A stretch of DNA of 64,000 nt from a virus. Each line of letters starts with the position of its first letter. Positions within the stretch are counted from its first letter, which is position 1. Where the stretch lies: positions 32,001 through 96,000 of IMG/VR virus record IMGVR_UViG_3300029985_000017; one strand, given 5' to 3'. A model generated the notes under the pieces. It saw only the letters and a program-made list of their open reading frames with translations, was not told the origin of the DNA and did not search any database. Positions 3,251 to 13,052 of this stretch are shown here, piece after piece. Made by a program: the position numbers and the translations under genes.

Positions 3251-4180
3251 ATGAAAAAGAATGCTAAGACCTTCCTAGATAAAACTTTAGGAAGTGACTT
3301 TTTAGAGTCGCTTGGCACTTCTTTGTCAAAATCTGAAGTATATAAACAAGGTACTAGAACTGTTACAGATACAGATGATCTATTCCAAGGTTTGCAAATT
3401 GTACCTAGGGCATTGTTGAGTTTATTGGTTCGTGAATTATCCCCCATGCAAATTGGGGAAACTAAAGAAATTAGAATTCCTGGAAAAGAAGACACTATAG
3501 TTTCAGCTACAAAACATGAACGTGATTCATATTCTGGACAAGTAATACAAAATAATGTTAAAATAAATGATTTTTTGCATCGCTCACTACCTGGTCTTGG
3601 ATTAGTCTTAATGACCATGCTAGAATTGTATGATTTTGAAGATCTTGAAAAAAAGCCTTCTATTCATCAAGATAAACAAGCACAAGTTCAAAAAATAATT
3701 GACGATCGAATGCAACTCCATTCCCTTGTTAATCAGGTTGTAGATGGTAAAATGCTACAACGTGACGCCATAAATCAGTTACTTATGAGTAAATTGACAC
3801 AATTATTGCATGAACATGAACAAATTAAAGAAGACCATAAAGAAATTATGGCTGAAGCACCTAAAGAAAAGTCTCCAGTAGTTATAGTTTTAAAACCACA
3901 AAAAAAGTCTCTACCTCTTGCCAGTTTCGTAGAAAATAGAAAAAAGAAATTAACAAAGAAAGAATTTTTGGTAGATATTTGTAAGGGAGAAACAAGAGAA
4001 TGCCCAGATTGTGGGCATACTGTTTTTGATGGTTCCGGCCTCTCAAGCTGCATATGTTTTGGCGACTCTAAAAAAGTTTTCTTAAAAAAGACTGAAACTG
4101 GCATTAAGTTATCTTTTAGCCGCCAATGGGATGCAGAGAATATCTCTATGCTATTAGAAGTCTTGAGGAGCAAGTCATGA
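3251..4180 (+). CDS. hypothetical head-associated protein with C-terminal Zn ribbon
   Basis: CPDCG...CIC motif; LSKSE and ICKGE motifs. Confidence 0.55.
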   Translation: MKKNAKTFLDKTLGSDFLESLGTSLSKSEVYKQGTRTVTDTDDLFQGLQIVPRALLSLLVRELSPMQIGETKEIRIPGKEDTIVSATKHERDSYSGQVIQNNVKINDFLHRSLPGLGLVLMTMLELYDFEDLEKKPSIHQDKQAQVQKIIDDRMQLHSLVNQVVDGKMLQRDAINQLLMSKLTQLLHEHEQIKEDHKEIMAEAPKEKSPVVIVLKPQKKSLPLASFVENRKKKLTKKEFLVDICKGETRECPDCGHTVFDGSGLSSCICFGDSKKVFLKKTETGIKLSFSRQWDAENISMLLEVLRSKS

Positions 4181-4677
4181 AAACTTGCAAAACCTGTAAA
4201 TTAGAAAAAGAAGATAGTTCTTATAGAATTTCTAAAAAAACAAAGAAACTTTTAAATCCTTGTTTTGACTGTAGAAAAAACATAAAAGAAGAATATAACA
4301 AAACTCATTTAGAAATTAATAATGCGACAAAAGATGCTTGGAAATTAAGAAATATAGATAAAGTAAGAGCCGCGAAAAAAAAATGGAAAGAAGAAAATAT
4401 AGGGAAAGTAAAAGCCGATAGGGCACGTAGAAAATTTCGCATAGAACAGGCAACACCTAAATGGCTTAGTTCTCAACAAATAGAAGCCATGGAATTCTTT
4501 TATTTATGGGCTGATCTTAGAAGTAAAAGCGGTGTAAAATATCATGTAGATCATATTATACCCATAGCAGGAAAAGATGTTTGCGGTCTCAATGTACCGT
4601 GGAATTTAGAAACTCTTAAAGAAGAAGAAAATCTTAAAAAAAGAAATAAATTGCTTTGGTGGAGGACAAATGGATAA
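4177..4677 (+). CDS. HNH homing endonuclease
   Basis: N-terminal CKTC...CFDC; YHVDHIIPIAGKDVCGLNVPWNL...ENLKK HNH signature; ATG 4177 after GAGGAG, ATGA overlap. Confidence 0.85.
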   Translation: MKTCKTCKLEKEDSSYRISKKTKKLLNPCFDCRKNIKEEYNKTHLEINNATKDAWKLRNIDKVRAAKKKWKEENIGKVKADRARRKFRIEQATPKWLSSQQIEAMEFFYLWADLRSKSGVKYHVDHIIPIAGKDVCGLNVPWNLETLKEEENLKKRNKLLWWRTNG

Positions 4678-6376
4678 TTCTAATACGTTCTTCGTATCTT
4701 TCGATGCAGATGACGCTGGCAGAAGAATAGGGCAAGCTATTTTAAATGATGACCCAGATTCTCTTAGGGATGCTTCACAAAAAATAGATCACGGTAACGA
4801 AATCGTAGCACAATGGGCACAAAAATATAATGGCGTACAGTACTCCTCTGGAGGAGATCAGGGTGTATGGTTAGTTCCAGTTGAAGCATTGCAGGAACTA
4901 GAATCCCTACGTAAAGACTATGAATTTGCTACTGGAATGACCATTTCAATAGGTGTTGCTGATACTCTTAGTGGCTCAGGAAGAAGTTTATTAGTCGCTA
5001 AAGTTAAAGGTAAAAACCAAATAGTTTTTTATGGTCCAGAAATAGAAAAAGAAATTCAACAAATTACTGAGAATGTTAGATCTGGACACGGTTCTTCAGA
5101 GGAACAAAAATTAGCAGAATCATATATAGAACCTACTCAGCATTCAGAGGCTTCCGATGATGATGAAGGCGTTGGACATGACCAAGTTCTTCCTACCGGT
5201 GCCGATGCTGCTCAAAATGAGCCTACTTTGTGTGAACCACCAAAAGACGATAATAATCGCGGCTATGATTCTGGATATAAAAATTCCGATGTAGAAGAGC
5301 GTAGGGATTCATATCAAGCTCAAGATCTAACGCCTCCTATTATTAGGAAACCAAACCTTACTCCTAAGCCTCGAGTGGAAGAAAGTTTTTCAACCGATAT
5401 ACCTGAAAGCGATAGAGTTATGAATAATGACCTACCTGATCCAAAAGATATGCCAGCAAAAGACTTAAAACCAGCCCCAAAAGACTATCATGGACAAGCG
5501 GAAGGTGCTCCCCCAGCTCCAGAAGGTTTGGCACAACCTATGCAAGGTAAGCCTAGCGACCTTAAATATAATGGCAATGACGAAAAGGGAATTCAAGAAC
5601 CCGACATGCCTAGGGAAAATGCTACTACGGATGAAGCCGAACAAACCGAAGAAAGTGATATGCTGGGAGATGATAAACATTGCCCTAGCTGCACCTGTGG
5701 CGCTCATGGGGATTCTGCAGAAGACACTTTAGATCAACACGTAGACAATGCTCAAGATTTCGCAGACGCTATTGGCAATGAACAAGAAGAAGATAGTGCT
5801 GAAGACACACTAGATGCTCATGTTAGTAATGCTAGCGAAATGAATGATGACATGGATGAAAACGGTGTTAGTCGTCCTGCTGATTACGATCAAAGAAATG
5901 AAGATATGGGTCTATCAGAAGAAGATGCTGATGACTCTAATTTAAACGACGTATTTAAAGATGGTTTAGATGCTCATGCAGACAGTATTCAACGTGAAAA
6001 AGTTGTTAATATGGTTGGTGAAGCTCTAGAAGCTTTCAAAGGCCAGAAAGCCATATTGGACAAAGCTAAAGCACAAGCCCCAGAACTTTATGATGCTTGT
6101 ATAGCCATGCTAAGAAGTATGATCGAACTTTGCTCGTTAGCTGGTATTGATGAAGGTCAAGCTGAGCAAGAAGTAAACGAAATCGAAGGCCAAAGTAAAG
6201 CTCCCGAAGAAGCTTCTGGTGAAGAAGGCGAAGGGTTTATACCTGAATCTGAAGATAATGGAGCTGAATCTGAAGAAGCCCCTGAATCAGAAGAAGGCGA
6301 ATCATGCCCTACTTGCGGAACACCACATGAAAAAGAAGCAGCTCCAGGAGGGGCTGCTCCATTCCCAAAAAAGTAA
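4670..6376 (+). CDS. mCpol (minimal CRISPR polymerase/GGDEF-like palm) domain fused to long acidic region
   Basis: aa 7-121: FVSFDADDAGRRI...SSGGDQ...TISIGV...LLVAKVKGKNQI follows the mCpol pattern (hDGDDhG...GGD...TxSxGhG...AL..AK..GKN). Remainder is acidic and low-complexity with CxxC motifs. Confidence 0.7.
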   Translation: MDNSNTFFVSFDADDAGRRIGQAILNDDPDSLRDASQKIDHGNEIVAQWAQKYNGVQYSSGGDQGVWLVPVEALQELESLRKDYEFATGMTISIGVADTLSGSGRSLLVAKVKGKNQIVFYGPEIEKEIQQITENVRSGHGSSEEQKLAESYIEPTQHSEASDDDEGVGHDQVLPTGADAAQNEPTLCEPPKDDNNRGYDSGYKNSDVEERRDSYQAQDLTPPIIRKPNLTPKPRVEESFSTDIPESDRVMNNDLPDPKDMPAKDLKPAPKDYHGQAEGAPPAPEGLAQPMQGKPSDLKYNGNDEKGIQEPDMPRENATTDEAEQTEESDMLGDDKHCPSCTCGAHGDSAEDTLDQHVDNAQDFADAIGNEQEEDSAEDTLDAHVSNASEMNDDMDENGVSRPADYDQRNEDMGLSEEDADDSNLNDVFKDGLDAHADSIQREKVVNMVGEALEAFKGQKAILDKAKAQAPELYDACIAMLRSMIELCSLAGIDEGQAEQEVNEIEGQSKAPEEASGEEGEGFIPESEDNGAESEEAPESEEGESCPTCGTPHEKEAAPGGAAPFPKK

Positions 6377-6403
6377 CGCCAGGGTCTGAAGAGGCTGCTG
6401 GCG
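6346..6403 (+). promoter_or_regulatory. programmed -1 ribosomal frameshift signal
   Basis: AGGAGG 6346-6351; in-frame slippery A_AAA_AAG 6367-6373 directly before TAA; hairpin CGCCAG(6377-82)/CTGGCG(6398-6403); -1 frame is open into ORF 6409-6597. Confidence 0.75.
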
Positions 6404-6597
6404 GCGGCGTGGGATCAATAAAAAAGTTACCTACTAAGAATAGTACCCCACATATTGCCAAAGAAACTACGCCAGTTGGTGGAATTAATGCTAAGGGCCA
6501 AAAACGTTATAAAGATCCTACAACTGGTAAGGACGCCTATATCAACATGAAAAATGGTATGGTAATGGGACCTAGGGGTATTCCTGTTAAGGGCTAA
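6373..6597 (+). CDS. 74-aa C-terminal extension of the mCpol protein reached by -1 frameshift (tracked ORF 6409-6597)
   Basis: VTPGSEEAAGGGVGSIKKLP... is continuous in the -1 frame; GTG 6409 has no convincing SD. Confidence 0.65.
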   Translation, partial: VTPGSEEAAGGGVGSIKKLPTKNSTPHIAKETTPVGGINAKGQKRYKDPTTGKDAYINMKNGMVMGPRGIPVKG

Positions 6598-6598
6598 T

Positions 6599-7465
6599 AT
6601 GATTAATATCAAATTAGATCCTTCATCACTTTTAGAAGCATGTAAAGAATCTTACAATGAAGTTAAGAAAGCCTTAACCAAATCTGTGACTAAACTTGCT
6701 AGTGCTGCAGAGACCCATTTGATCGAATTAACAAAAGAAGAATTAAATTCTCATCAATATAAAATGTTTGTGGGTGGAGACGATATGAAAAATATCGAAT
6801 TAACATCGCCAGATCCAAATGTTCATATTCTAACCATTAAAAATAAAGCGGTTCTTATAGATAATGGCGAAAGAATGGACATGAAAACCGATGATTGGCT
6901 TTTTAGTAGCTCCAAAACTAAAACTGGTAAAAAGGGTAAATATTTAGTTATTCCTTTTCAGCATGCTGAAAAAAATTCTAAATCTGAATCTGCAACTAAT
7001 AGACTTAAAATAGAACTTACCAATAGAATAAAAGAAGAACTAGATTTTCAAAATAGAAAAAGAAAAGCTAAAAAGCAACGCTCTATAAGCGTTGGTGGAA
7101 TAGAACGTTACCAAGAAGACTCTATGGGTCACAAAAAAGGCGAAATCATAGAAGGTAAACTTCATGAGTTTAACATCTTTGGCAGCAAGAAAAAGTCTCA
7201 TTGGTCAGATATGCCTTTAACCAGAGTAGGTGTTTATCAAAAGATAAAAAGAGATGATCAAGGAAATCCTGTCACGGATAAAAATGGCAAAGTAAAAGCT
7301 ATTCGTTCTTGGATGACCTTTAGAACTGCTTCAGAAGGGTCCCCAGATAAATTTTGGTATCCAGCACCTAAAACCAAAGATTTTTTAGCTAGAACTGGTG
7401 ATTGGGTTGAAAAAGAATTTTATGAAAACATAGTCCCAAATATCTTAAAAGAGTGGAAGGACTAA
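6599..7465 (+). CDS. putative neck/tail-completion protein
   Basis: 288 aa, basic; KYLVIPF...WMTFRTASE...FWYP pattern seen in myovirus neck proteins; position before sheath. Confidence 0.45.
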   Translation: MINIKLDPSSLLEACKESYNEVKKALTKSVTKLASAAETHLIELTKEELNSHQYKMFVGGDDMKNIELTSPDPNVHILTIKNKAVLIDNGERMDMKTDDWLFSSSKTKTGKKGKYLVIPFQHAEKNSKSESATNRLKIELTNRIKEELDFQNRKRKAKKQRSISVGGIERYQEDSMGHKKGEIIEGKLHEFNIFGSKKKSHWSDMPLTRVGVYQKIKRDDQGNPVTDKNGKVKAIRSWMTFRTASEGSPDKFWYPAPKTKDFLARTGDWVEKEFYENIVPNILKEWKD

Positions 7466-7468
7466 TTT

Positions 7469-8497
7469 ATGGGCGGTATATTTCAAACAGATGTTTTATT
7501 AAAAACGATATTAGAAGAATGGTTAGAAGACATTAAAAATAATCTATGGCTTTTAGATCATATTTTAGAAGATTTTGTTGATAGTCCATTACTTAGAACT
7601 AAATATGGACAAAAACAAATTCAGGCTGCTAAAGAGTACTTTACCAACAATAATGTAAATATATTTAATCAATTTGTTAAAGATAAAGATAAATTTCCAT
7701 GCATAGTATTAACTCTAGGCTCTTCAAATGAAGTTCAAGAGATGCGTACACTTGGAGATATAGATACACCTACAATTAATTTTTTACCACCAAATCTGGT
7801 GGGACAGAAGATACCTTATGTAGTTCCTCCATTTATTCCTTCTAGCTACGAGGCATCTACCGGTATAGTAACAGCCCCCATTGGTGTGGATATAGAGCCA
7901 GTGACTGCAGGCATGATTTTACTCAACCCAACTACTGGAACGGGTACTCCAGTTTTAAGTATTAATGGCCAAGAAATTTATGTTCAACCAAATGTACAAT
8001 TGGATACTAGTCAACTTGGAGTTGTACCACAGTACAGATTTTTCCAATCTAGACTAGGAAGAAGTTTCTTCGAAGAAAACTGGAATATTACGATCGCCAC
8101 AAATGATCCCCAATCTCTTCTATGGCTGTGGTCAATCGTGACCTATGGACTTTTAAGATATAGGGAGTACATGGAGCACAATGGGTTATTAGAAACACAT
8201 TTTAATAGTACAGATATTTTTAATCCCGAATTCTCTAATGCTGGTGCGGAAGAAATTTATTGTCGTCAAATAACCATGGCTGGCAAAGTATACAATAACT
8301 TTATCAGAGGACTGCATAGAAAAATTGAATCGGTAATACTTAGAGATACTAATCCTGCAGCCATCACTTTATCGGATCCATCAGGTTATGTAGGCGGAAT
8401 TAAATTCGTTTCAAATCAAGAGACTCCACCTGCACAGCAGAATCAAACTAATTGGTTTACCGTAACTCAAGCTGAAGATGAGGCAAATGAAGATTAA
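7469..8497 (+). CDS. putative tail terminator/tail-completion protein
   Basis: 342 aa; FPCIVLTL strand and synteny upstream of sheath. Confidence 0.45.
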   Translation: MGGIFQTDVLLKTILEEWLEDIKNNLWLLDHILEDFVDSPLLRTKYGQKQIQAAKEYFTNNNVNIFNQFVKDKDKFPCIVLTLGSSNEVQEMRTLGDIDTPTINFLPPNLVGQKIPYVVPPFIPSSYEASTGIVTAPIGVDIEPVTAGMILLNPTTGTGTPVLSINGQEIYVQPNVQLDTSQLGVVPQYRFFQSRLGRSFFEENWNITIATNDPQSLLWLWSIVTYGLLRYREYMEHNGLLETHFNSTDIFNPEFSNAGAEEIYCRQITMAGKVYNNFIRGLHRKIESVILRDTNPAAITLSDPSGYVGGIKFVSNQETPPAQQNQTNWFTVTQAEDEANED

Positions 8498-10892: not shown

Positions 10893-13052
10893 ATGTCGCA
10901 AAGACTATCCACGACGTTCGTTAATACTAATGTTCCAGGAACATATGTTAATTATTCAGTACTTACGCAGCCTGTTGGGGTTACTTCCTCAGGTATAGCG
11001 GTTATCATGGGCGAAGCCGATGGTGGACCTAGCTTTAGCCAAACTACTTTAGCTGCTAGCCTTTATACGCCATCTCAGCTTCAGCAAATGACCCAAGTTT
11101 ATACTAGTGGTCAACTTGTTGACGGCTTTACGGCATTGTGTTCTCCTTCGAATGATGCTAATATCACGGGAACTGCTACTCAGATCTACGTTGTTAAAAC
11201 CAATACCGGTACTACAGCTACCGCTACCCTGCCTTCTTATGGTGACCTTAGTTACCTTAATTATGGTATTTTAGGCAATCAAACTCAGTATCAAGTTCTA
11301 TCTACGGCTGCAGAAGTTGCTCCTACGGTTACCGGGACCACGATCCCTGCTTTTGGAGCCCCTTTGAATGGCGCTAGTTTTACTATTCGTCTAAACGGTG
11401 GTGTTAGCCATATTATTACTTTGAGCGCAACGCCTTCTCTTCATAATAGCATTTCTACCTTGGTCACAGAACTTAATACTCTTTTAGTTGCTGTAACCGC
11501 TGCTCCTACCGGAATCACGGCTTCTCCAGGTACTCCTTTGAATACCCTCACTCTAACTGTTGGTGCTGATTCAAATGCTTATAGCGAAGGATGGGGAAAA
11601 TCGTTTGAATTGATTGATTCTACTCCCGGTGACTTGGCTGCTTTAGGTCTATCCCCAGGACTTACGATTTCTTCACAAGAAGCTGAAATTGAACAACAGA
11701 ACAGTAATTCTACTACCGGTACTAGTGAAACTCTAGCCGTTAACTCACAAATTGCTTTGTTGGTAGGTTATCAAGGTACTTCAGCAACTATCACTATTAC
11801 CAACGTGGCTTTAACTACGGCAGTAGTAGGTGGCGCTGGTATTGGTCTTAGTTTGACCTTAAGTGAATATTCCACGATTGGTCTATTGGCTTCCTTCATC
11901 AATTCTCAACCAGGATATACGGCGGCAGCTCTTCCTGCGGCTAGCAGCCAACCAGCAACTTCATTGGATGCTGTATCTGCTCAAGGAATTTGTTCTACCG
12001 AATCAGAACTTACACCAGGTAGAATTAAAATTGCTTTAGCTAATTATGAACAAGCTATGACTACTTCTAGGTTGCTTGCTTTTTCACCTACGGCAAGCGC
12101 TGGACTTCCGGCTCCTACGTCTGCTCCAGCCTATCTTGCTGGTGGCAGCAGAGGACCAACTTTGGCTATAGATATTGTGGATGCGCTTACGCTTCTTCAA
12201 AGTGTTAATTGTAATATCATTGTTCCATTGTTTTCTCAAAATGCTTCAGCAGATATCGCTGCCGGTCAAACGGATCCAAATTCAACCTACACGATTGCTG
12301 CAATTGATGCTCTATTGAAGAGCCATTGTTTGGAAATGAGCAACCCAAGTTTGAACAGGAATCGTATTTGTATCTTGTCAAATCTTGGCACATTTGCTGC
12401 AGCTGCTGCAACAGCTCAGACTTTGGCAAGCGATCGTTGTTCATTGACTTTCCAACAGGTAACGCAGGTTAATTCAACTGGAGTGGTCACGACCTTCCAG
12501 CCGTGGTATGCTGCATGTGTCGCAATGGGAATGCAACTTGGTGGTTTCTATAAAGCGATTGTTGGAAAATACGCTAATGTTATTAGCATTATCGATCCAT
12601 CAGATTACAATAACGGGAATCCAGGGGACACAAGCGAAGCTCTAACTGCTGGTTTGTTGCCATTGTATGAAGACGTTGGCGGCCCTAAGTGGGTTAGCGA
12701 TCAAACGACCTATAGCGTTGATGACAATTTCGTATACAATTCAATTCAGGCTATGTATGATGCTGACTTGATTGCTATTGACTTGAAATCTAGCTTCACG
12801 GATGCTTTCGTTGGTCAATCTCTTGCAGATGTTTCTGCTGCTTCAGCTTCAGCTTTCTTGACGCAAAAGATGGCTAGCTACATGCAATTGAAACTGATTG
12901 CTCCAAGCAATGGGGCTCCATTGGGATTCAACAATGCGAAGGTTTCCATTAACGCACCTACTATGACTATAGCGGTTAATATCTATCTTGCAACTGCGAT
13001 TTACTTTATTCCGATCAGCTTCACCATTTCAGCGGTTCAGCAATCGGCTTAA
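10893..13052 (+). CDS. contractile tail sheath protein
   Basis: 719 aa; N-terminal PGTYV...IMGEADGGP; C-terminal sheath domain (DQTTY...SIQ...IYFIPISFTI); followed by tube gene. Confidence 0.88.
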   Translation: MSQRLSTTFVNTNVPGTYVNYSVLTQPVGVTSSGIAVIMGEADGGPSFSQTTLAASLYTPSQLQQMTQVYTSGQLVDGFTALCSPSNDANITGTATQIYVVKTNTGTTATATLPSYGDLSYLNYGILGNQTQYQVLSTAAEVAPTVTGTTIPAFGAPLNGASFTIRLNGGVSHIITLSATPSLHNSISTLVTELNTLLVAVTAAPTGITASPGTPLNTLTLTVGADSNAYSEGWGKSFELIDSTPGDLAALGLSPGLTISSQEAEIEQQNSNSTTGTSETLAVNSQIALLVGYQGTSATITITNVALTTAVVGGAGIGLSLTLSEYSTIGLLASFINSQPGYTAAALPAASSQPATSLDAVSAQGICSTESELTPGRIKIALANYEQAMTTSRLLAFSPTASAGLPAPTSAPAYLAGGSRGPTLAIDIVDALTLLQSVNCNIIVPLFSQNASADIAAGQTDPNSTYTIAAIDALLKSHCLEMSNPSLNRNRICILSNLGTFAAAAATAQTLASDRCSLTFQQVTQVNSTGVVTTFQPWYAACVAMGMQLGGFYKAIVGKYANVISIIDPSDYNNGNPGDTSEALTAGLLPLYEDVGGPKWVSDQTTYSVDDNFVYNSIQAMYDADLIAIDLKSSFTDAFVGQSLADVSAASASAFLTQKMASYMQLKLIAPSNGAPLGFNNAKVSINAPTMTIAVNIYLATAIYFIPISFTISAVQQSA

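Follow-up and report, generated by a model that had tools for sequence, protein, structure and literature searches.

Characterised minimal CRISPR polymerases (mCpol) are alarm-guard synthases of bacteria, and in the Panoptes system the stand-alone synthase of about 120 amino acids (aa) shares an operon with a nucleotide-binding membrane effector. In KpOptS, Asp6 and Asp57 bind metals and are required for full activity (PMC12657218); Ser30 of OptS is one of two residues reported for the selection of adenosine triphosphate (ATP), and mCpol structures show a dimeric enzyme (PMC12657230). According to the Panoptes papers, mCpol systems are relatively rare (PMC12657218, PMC12657230). On the phage side, the closest described case is that of rare GGDEF heads on polyvalent proteins, for which interference with the nucleotide signalling of the host has been predicted (Iyer et al. 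2017, PMC5512222). Here we analyzed a window of 64,000 nucleotides (nt), namely bases 32001–96000 of the 163,229-bp IMG/VR virus record IMGVR_UViG_3300029985_000017 (completeness estimate 99%), and focused on one gene that encodes an mCpol domain (the head) followed by about 450 further residues (the carrier), together here referred to as the mCpol-carrier protein. The source genome, of 163 kb, belongs to an uncultured phage related to Myxococcus phage Mx1. We found that this phage lineage uses an mCpol of the Panoptes family as a modular head on a frameshifted carrier encoded in the virion gene cluster.

The N-terminal domain is an mCpol with retained catalytic residues

The N-terminal ~120 residues of the protein are a true mCpol fold in which the catalytic residues are retained. 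The Pfam model mCpol (PF18182) matched aa 8–121 over its complete length (model positions 1–114 of 114) with an E-value of 2.7e-8 and 34.6 bits, above the cut-off of 26.4. With the single sequence as query, phmmer retrieved the structures of KpOptS (9mnr) and mCpol (9nwn) at E ~2e-3, and a profile of 31 phage N-terminal domains matched the same two structures over their full length at 4e-18 and 1.4e-17, respectively. Moreover, an AlphaFold model built with 32 homologues reached a predicted local distance difference test value (pLDDT) above 90 for residues 10–130. Its top Foldseek matches were 9mnr, 9pd0 and 9nwn, with template modelling (TM) scores, by target, of 0.85–0.88 and a root-mean-square deviation of 1.7–2.1 Å over 115–119 columns, and palms of the GGDEF and Cas10 types came next, well behind these structures.

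The active site is made up of D12 and D14 in strand 1, then S36, D63 on a GGDQ hairpin, and K111 and K115. Asp6, Asp57 and Ser30 of OptS align with D12, D63 and S36, respectively. OptS itself reads AADG at the position of GGDQ, and therefore Gln64 of the phage protein is no argument against activity. The original prediction, made from the sequence alone, had proposed an mCpol domain whose acidic residues are kept, and both the match to the Pfam model and the superposition on OptS bear it out; the translated gene also contains the residues quoted there. PHROGs and PADLOC contain no family for the mCpol-carrier protein, and no second copy of its N-terminal or C-terminal domain was found in this genome.

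A large phage clade of mCpol domains

We scanned 1.84 billion representative proteins for further members of the family and obtained 785 clusters at E up to 1e-3, with 547 at E up to 1e-10. Nearly all proteins in these clusters are 350–1100 aa long and carry the domain at the N terminus. This phage-specific mCpol clade is large, with at least 547 clusters at 50% identity, and no description of it was found in the papers searched; phage-encoded mCpol goes unmentioned in the Panoptes papers and in a review from 2026. When tblastn was run with three family members against 50,697 records of cultured phages, the mCpol-carrier fusion turned up only in Myxococcus phage Mx1, and megablast against cultured phages gave no match. 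No relative was found in the GTDB species genomes, and a word-based search for short stand-alone relatives returned one fragment only.

Conservation was counted in 200 domain copies from 197 proteins. K111 is kept in all 200 copies, D14 in 197, G62 in 196 and S36 in 180. The two catalytic Asp, whose loss among phage homologues would have refuted the original prediction, are kept in 190 copies (D12, with Asn in 8 others) and 197 copies (D63). The active-site set is retained at all IMG/VR loci with a complete N-terminal domain, and the window protein, with its Gln64, keeps every other functional site. Judged by these counts, the active site is under strong purifying selection where the head is present, and for this reason the most likely product of the head is a cyclic di- or oligonucleotide.

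Three metagenomic proteins (P0056, P0167 and P0194) carry tandem mCpol domains, one with an intact and one with a degenerate active site. These tandem heads recall the two palms of Cas10, and their single intact site would fit an enzyme acting as a dimer.

The head is accessory to a conserved carrier

The original prediction had described the remainder of the protein as about 450 aa of acidic, largely disordered sequence. This holds for the linker, and the two CxxC motifs (aa 338–341 and aa 546–549) are also present as described, but the carrier additionally contains a conserved helical C-terminal domain (C-domain) and a recoded tail (Table 1). The helical C-domain is also present in Mx1 and in carriers that lack mCpol. 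The model predicted for this domain and the tail had only modest confidence (pLDDT about 60 to 86) and consisted of helices plus one beta-hairpin, without a recognisable fold; likewise, an Atlas search with the C-terminal part returned generic helical look-alikes only.

With the C-terminal part as query we collected 62 proteins, 55 of them with mCpol, and one of these 55 adds a GNAT domain. In three clusters (P0205, P0207 and P0212) the protein starts at the Cys-knuckle linker, without an mCpol head in front of it. For one of the three, in a 13-kb locus on a 164-kb contig (L068), a homologue of the 309-aa protein, the carrier, homologues of the 288-aa and 342-aa proteins, the sheath and the tube follow each other in the same order as in the window. 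The headless carrier gene (L068:6001-7359) is preceded by a ribosome-binding site of its own, and no mCpol was found in any frame of the 13-kb locus. This carrier, P0207 and P0212 begin with arrays of CPYC-type Cys knuckles. P0044 and P0045 were excluded from the count of headless carriers, being probably gene calls that start mid-gene.

Longer members of the family contain inserted modules, which include GNAT (9), NUDIX (1), DUF5661 (5) and methyltransferase-like domains. Residues 450–570 of P0130 form an inserted module ~42% identical to hypothetical proteins of Caulobacter phiCbK-like phages, and the module also matches hypothetical proteins of some cyanophages. Most syntenic orthologues carry a head of the active type; the others have a dead head, no head, or added GNAT/NUDIX modules. 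Because syntenic carriers without mCpol and carriers with added modules exist, the mCpol head is accessory to the conserved carrier. Synteny in related phages, which the original prediction had suggested looking at, is kept for the carrier both at the headless locus and, for example, at the 44 loci that have the 288-aa homologue.

The orthologue in Mx1 (WNM70340.1 in OR576727.2; L001:8010-9416) is annotated as hypothetical, and its gene is syntenic, lying four genes upstream of that for the sheath. The profiles of the N-terminal domain and the C-domain match the protein at 1e-27 and 6e-14, respectively, and its tail is fused in-frame. In its head, Ser, Ala and Gln replace D12, D63 and K111, respectively. 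Since both catalytic Asp and the invariant Lys are lost, the Mx1 head must, by its sequence, be catalytically dead. Mx1 resists a CBASS (cyclic oligonucleotide-based antiphage signalling system)/type III island in Myxococcus (PMC11506125), and because its head is dead this resistance is not creditable to mCpol catalysis.

Protease-type motifs and packaging

The genome encodes proteins with a hydrophobic-x-K-[SAG]-E motif of the head-protease type; the scaffold has 10 copies of this motif and the head protease has 7. The mCpol-carrier protein has no copy at all, in agreement with the original prediction, which had pointed out that the K-S-E motif of other head proteins is missing here. In the wider family, the motif occurs 132 times versus 57.5 in shuffles. 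Of 193 proteins, 37 have a copy 24–33 aa past the domain end, about fivefold the background rate, and the window protein reads SYIEPT, a degenerate form, at the aligned spot in the helix of aa 144–156. Relatives with an N-terminal extension have motifs just before the mCpol domain, and five or six motifs are spread between the modules of several long members. The Mx1 protein has two protease-type motifs, VQKSE and IPKAE, C-terminal to the C-domain. The pattern in the relatives looks like that of head-packaged, protease-cut cargo, and from these relatives together with the gene position we infer that the window protein may be packaged as well.

Two predicted protein lengths through a probable programmed frameshift

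Programmed -1 frameshifts are known from phage assembly genes (lambda G/GT) and from dnaX. The short form of the mCpol-carrier protein ends at TAA (6374–6376), directly after the heptamer A_AAA_AAG (6367–6373), and the -1 frame continues across the stop with a basic tail. We found the tail peptide in 50 of 60 related IMG/VR loci. It is fused in-frame as one open reading frame (ORF) in 18 loci, as in Mx1, and lies in the -1 frame in 22 loci (19 distinct); in the other 10 loci it is encoded in the +1 (or -2) frame and follows a conserved CCCCACAGCAG. An in-frame X_XXY_YYZ heptamer is located 0–27 nt 5' of the stop in 18 of the 19 distinct -1 loci. It reads C_CCA_AAR in 17 of these, and the window has a weak C_CCA_AAA beside A_AAA_AAG. 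Fourteen of the 19 distinct -1 loci lack any start codon upstream of the conserved KLP motif of the tail; in the window, the sole start candidate of the tail ORF is a GTG without a Shine-Dalgarno sequence. The hairpin behind the slippery site is only modestly more stable than shuffles (z -1.65). The tail peptide matched nothing in Pfam or in cultured phages.

The comparison gives good support to a programmed -1 ribosomal frameshift that would yield a short form and a long one, because of the conserved heptamers, the missing starts and the in-frame fusion in 18 loci. The tail provides a clear comparative case, in which the same peptide is reached in sister phages via fusion, a -1 shift or a +1/-2 shift. 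The arrangement in the +1/-2 loci would be compatible with tRNA-Pro slipping by -2 on CCCCA. At the ends of the carrier genes in L005, L006, L009–L011, L014, L017, L031, L032 and L035, CCCCACAGCAG is kept at the nucleotide level.

Gene neighbourhood and features of the locus

The mCpol-carrier gene lies within a tightly packed run of genes on the plus strand (Table 1). Downstream are the genes for the tail sheath (10893–13052), a tube-like protein, the large terminase and the portal, and proteins bearing the hydrophobic-x-K-[SAG]-E motif flank the gene on both sides; its placement among head and neck genes in the original prediction was thus correct. As is typical of polyvalent proteins, the gene is encoded among late structural genes.

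Table 1. Features of the mCpol-carrier gene and its neighbours (positions in the window).
Feature	Position	Strand	Basis
309-aa protein, two protease-type motifs	3251..4180	+	direct upstream neighbour in most relatives
Endonuclease VII-like gene, overlaps start of mCpol gene	4126..4677	+	PHROG match phrog_1035; synteny
mCpol-carrier ORF, short form, 568 aa	4670..6376	+	ORF translation; 51 full-length homologues on ~160-kb contigs; 60 IMG/VR loci
mCpol domain, aa 8–121	4691..5032	+	Pfam, PDB sequence matches, fold, conservation in 200 copies
Conserved helix right after mCpol domain, aa 144–156	5099..5137	+	model pLDDT; motif alignment
Acidic linker, mostly disordered, with short conserved motifs; His/Cys knuckle at aa 337–343 (nt 5678–5698)	5138..5869	+	alignment; pLDDT
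Conserved helical C-domain, aa 401–500	5870..6169	+	in 143/199 collected proteins; helices pLDDT 75–86
Second CxxC, aa 546–549	6305..6316	+	nearly invariant in close homologues
Two overlapping in-frame slippery heptamers, C_CCA_AAA and A_AAA_AAG	6364..6373	+	abut stop codon 6374–6376
Basic tail, ~73 codons, -1 frame	6376..6597	+	-1 frame open across stop; predicted beta-hairpin; gives long form
Hairpin, 3 nt 3' of slippery site	6377..6403	+	-16.7 kcal/mol, z -1.65
288-aa downstream partner gene, conserved	6599..7465	+	homologue in 44 loci, nearly all directly 3' of carrier gene
342-aa protein, candidate tail terminator/sheath stabiliser	7469..8497	+	Atlas 0.94 with SP10_terminator clusters, T4 gp15-like lower down

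The endonuclease VII-like gene is missing at most related loci, where the 309-aa head-protein gene directly abuts the mCpol gene, and it looks like a mobile nuclease insertion. The gene for the 288-aa protein starts 2 nt past the end of the tail ORF; the protein has no Pfam, PDB or named PHROG match and could be a functional partner of the carrier. The 342-aa protein is probably a tail terminator or sheath stabiliser, which is a lead only, its match to Pfam SP10_terminator (E 0.026) being below the threshold. Profiles of the two genes downstream of the carrier found nothing in the PDB. Further upstream, a motif-rich cargo protein of 542 aa (genome 31393–33021; window up to 1021) has phrog_2563 (function unknown) as its sole match and none in Pfam, NCBIfam or PADLOC. 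Pfam detected neither 2H nor GNAT in this upstream cargo protein, and the argument that the phage would offset its own Acb1 was therefore set aside. A candidate late-promoter word, AATCTTTA, has 13 sites in the window (e.g. at 2721, 8501 and 8959) versus 8.3 expected, a count that is not significant alone, as 13 was reached in 7 of 100 shuffles.

The GC content of this genome is 38.4%, versus 55.5% in Mx1 and ~69% in Myxococcus. On account of this difference, the host is probably not a myxobacterium.

Proposed role and alternative explanations

We tentatively favour the reading that the mCpol-carrier protein is a two-part late protein, consisting of a conserved carrier and an accessory mCpol head that is catalytically competent as judged by fold and residues and makes a phage-encoded signal against host immunity; this seems to us quite possible, if a little short of probable. 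The carrier combines the acidic linker with its Cys knuckle, the 100-aa helical domain and the basic tail with a predicted beta-hairpin, and its gene is placed between those of head-internal proteins and those of the neck and tail terminator. In this phage it would be made in two lengths through the -1 frameshift at A_AAA_AAG, and the recoded tail may be an anchor. The swappable N-terminal head would act as the effector. It is probably dimeric like OptS and would join at least two nucleoside triphosphates into a cyclic di- or oligonucleotide, ATP being the likely substrate, given the conserved Ser. The most likely purpose of such a nucleotide signal in the infected cell would be to upset host immune systems that depend on signals of this kind, and delivery is probably with the virion, as for polyvalent cargo proteins.

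In its most specific version, this reading would have a Panoptes-type guard effector held ligand-bound and hence off. A packaged and injected mCpol would then supply 2',3'-c-di-AMP (cyclic di-adenosine monophosphate), cA3 (cyclic tri-adenylate) or a relative as an anti-guard agent, which we regard as rather unlikely. The original prediction had suggested a role against Panoptes or CBASS in particular, and nothing ties the enzyme there: no Acb2-like, Tad2-like or 2H family was detected in the genome. Its statement that no effector lies beside the gene extends further than it had claimed, as no CARF (Cas_APE2256), SAVED or Cap15/S-2TM-beta receptor was detected across the whole 163-kb genome. 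The data thus support a counter-defence or signalling enzyme rather than a specific anti-Panoptes role, and the anti-Panoptes reading is attractive but unsupported.

Several observations weigh against a packaged, active and immunity-directed enzyme. There is no phage sponge, 2H enzyme or nucleotide sensor detected in the genome that would give it a specific rationale, and head packaging is not indicated for the window protein itself, which lacks the protease-type motif. The NCBIfam model mCpol (NF033576) matches the same aa 8–121 at 29.7 bits and does not reach its cut-off of 40. The GGDQ of the window protein is a minority variant, with Gln at position 64 in 26 of the 200 copies and Glu in 171. 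In Mx1, the one member in culture, the head is dead (D12S, D63A, K111Q), and catalysis is thus dispensable in at least one lineage. Finally, the GC content differs from that of Mx1 as given above.

The protein might serve solely in the structure or assembly of the head-neck junction, with a palm that only oligomerises or binds a nucleotide and makes no signal. Programmed frameshifts with two C termini are typical of phage assembly and structural proteins such as lambda G/GT, and this counts for such a role, as do the fixed syntenic position amid morphogenesis genes and the Mx1 copy, which keeps the fold after losing the catalytic residues. However, residues of the active site, for which a scaffold has no need, are kept in ~95% of copies, tandem versions keep exactly one intact site, and orthologous carriers work without mCpol, so the domain is not a required structural part. 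We therefore consider a structural role unlikely, although the idea of a co-opted palm, raised in the original prediction as an alternative, is of mixed standing: syntenic carriers that lack the domain speak against it, whereas the loss of catalytic Asp and invariant Lys speaks for it in the case of Mx1. An active enzyme that is not packaged has a similarly low probability. It would act at a late stage in the cell that produces it, where it could, for instance, keep abortive-infection effectors bound to their ligand until lysis or time a late process of the phage, as would suit a gene in a tightly packed late-gene run whose product lacks the head-protease motif. Against it stand the protease-type motifs at the domain borders in relatives and the absence of a detectable phage-encoded receptor in the 163-kb genome, and the conserved anchor-like tail on the carrier would be hard to explain for a free cytoplasmic enzyme.

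Less probable again, and about as improbable as the anti-guard version, is a nucleotide that hijacks host physiology (motility, biofilm or stress) or excludes rival elements or superinfecting phages, and leaves immunity aside. Both uses have been proposed for cyclase domains in polyvalent proteins (Iyer et al., PMC5512222), and ordinary GGDEF proteins do occur in phages, e.g. Bacillus phage G and SP-15, but the characterised members of the mCpol/Cas10 branch all belong to immunity (PMC12657218, PMC12657230, PMC13577387). A chance resemblance or a decaying gene, which the weak single-sequence E-values to PDB chains (~2e-3) might suggest, has a negligible probability and is refuted by the profile E-value of 4e-18, the full Pfam model above its cut-off, TM scores up to 0.88 and 547 clusters with E below 1e-10.

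The signalling role that we favour would matter in several respects. Characterised mCpol proteins serve bacteria as alarm-guard synthases, and here a phage lineage has a large and strongly conserved clade of them as a swappable head. If the head is active, phages would synthesise immune-type cyclic nucleotides, besides destroying or sequestering such nucleotides, and a direct test would be opened of whether a virus-made ligand silences guard systems such as Panoptes. If the anti-guard version were true, it would add a further layer to the nucleotide-signalling arms race. The natural series of active head, dead head (Mx1), no head and head with extra enzymes offers ready-made controls.

Comparison with known systems

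Among described proteins, OptS and mCpol (PF18182; KpOptS 9mnr and 9pd0; mCpol 9nwn; types I and II; PMC12657218, PMC12657230, PMC13577387) are the most similar to the head. They share with it the fold at the TM scores given above, the two catalytic Asp, the Ser, a C-terminal Lys/Gly motif and a domain size of ~115 residues. However, identity to OptS is only ~24%, the GGD[EQ] hairpin of the phage domains looks canonical in comparison with AADG in OptS, and the copy of this lytic-type phage sits on a 450-aa carrier without a partner gene for S-2TM-beta or a CARF-TM protein. At the level of the system, the operon with a nucleotide-binding membrane effector is replaced by virion genes as neighbours, and a 568-aa fusion in a virus record takes the place of the ~120-aa stand-alone bacterial synthase. 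Cas10 palms and GGDEF cyclases are more distant. They have in common with the head the palm/RRM fold, the metal-binding Asp and the logic of a GGD[DE]-type hairpin, but their Foldseek matches are much weaker than those of OptS, and the phage protein contains no target-RNA sensing apparatus, I-site or sensory domains.

The Mx1 protein WNM70340.1 is the named relative in a cultured phage; it resembles the mCpol-carrier protein in synteny, in its matches to both domain profiles and in the tail, and differs in its lost catalytic residues and in the two protease-type motifs after the C-domain. The recoding signal is similar to those of lambda G/GT and dnaX in having an X_XXA_AAG-type heptamer near the end of the upstream frame, a downstream frame without a start and a shared N terminus. 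In contrast to lambda G/GT, the carrier gene is by its position not a tail assembly chaperone gene, and in contrast to both systems, relatives of the carrier fuse the tail outright (18 loci) or use the +1/-2 frame (10 loci).

As for the overall design, the architecture fits that of an effector on a carrier, as in polyvalent proteins (PMC5512222), in which an enzymatic module is likewise placed on a conserved virion-cluster protein and interference with host nucleotide signalling is predicted. Added GNAT/NUDIX modules and protease-type motifs between modules are shared by the relatives only; the window protein differs in having a single recognisable enzyme domain, no MuF/portal domain and no protease motif. 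Moreover, its head is mCpol and not GGDEF, and the carrier with the frameshifted tail lies outside the described set. By analogy, the mCpol head may thus represent the same idea as the GGDEF heads of polyvalent proteins, carried out with a different and much more widespread palm.

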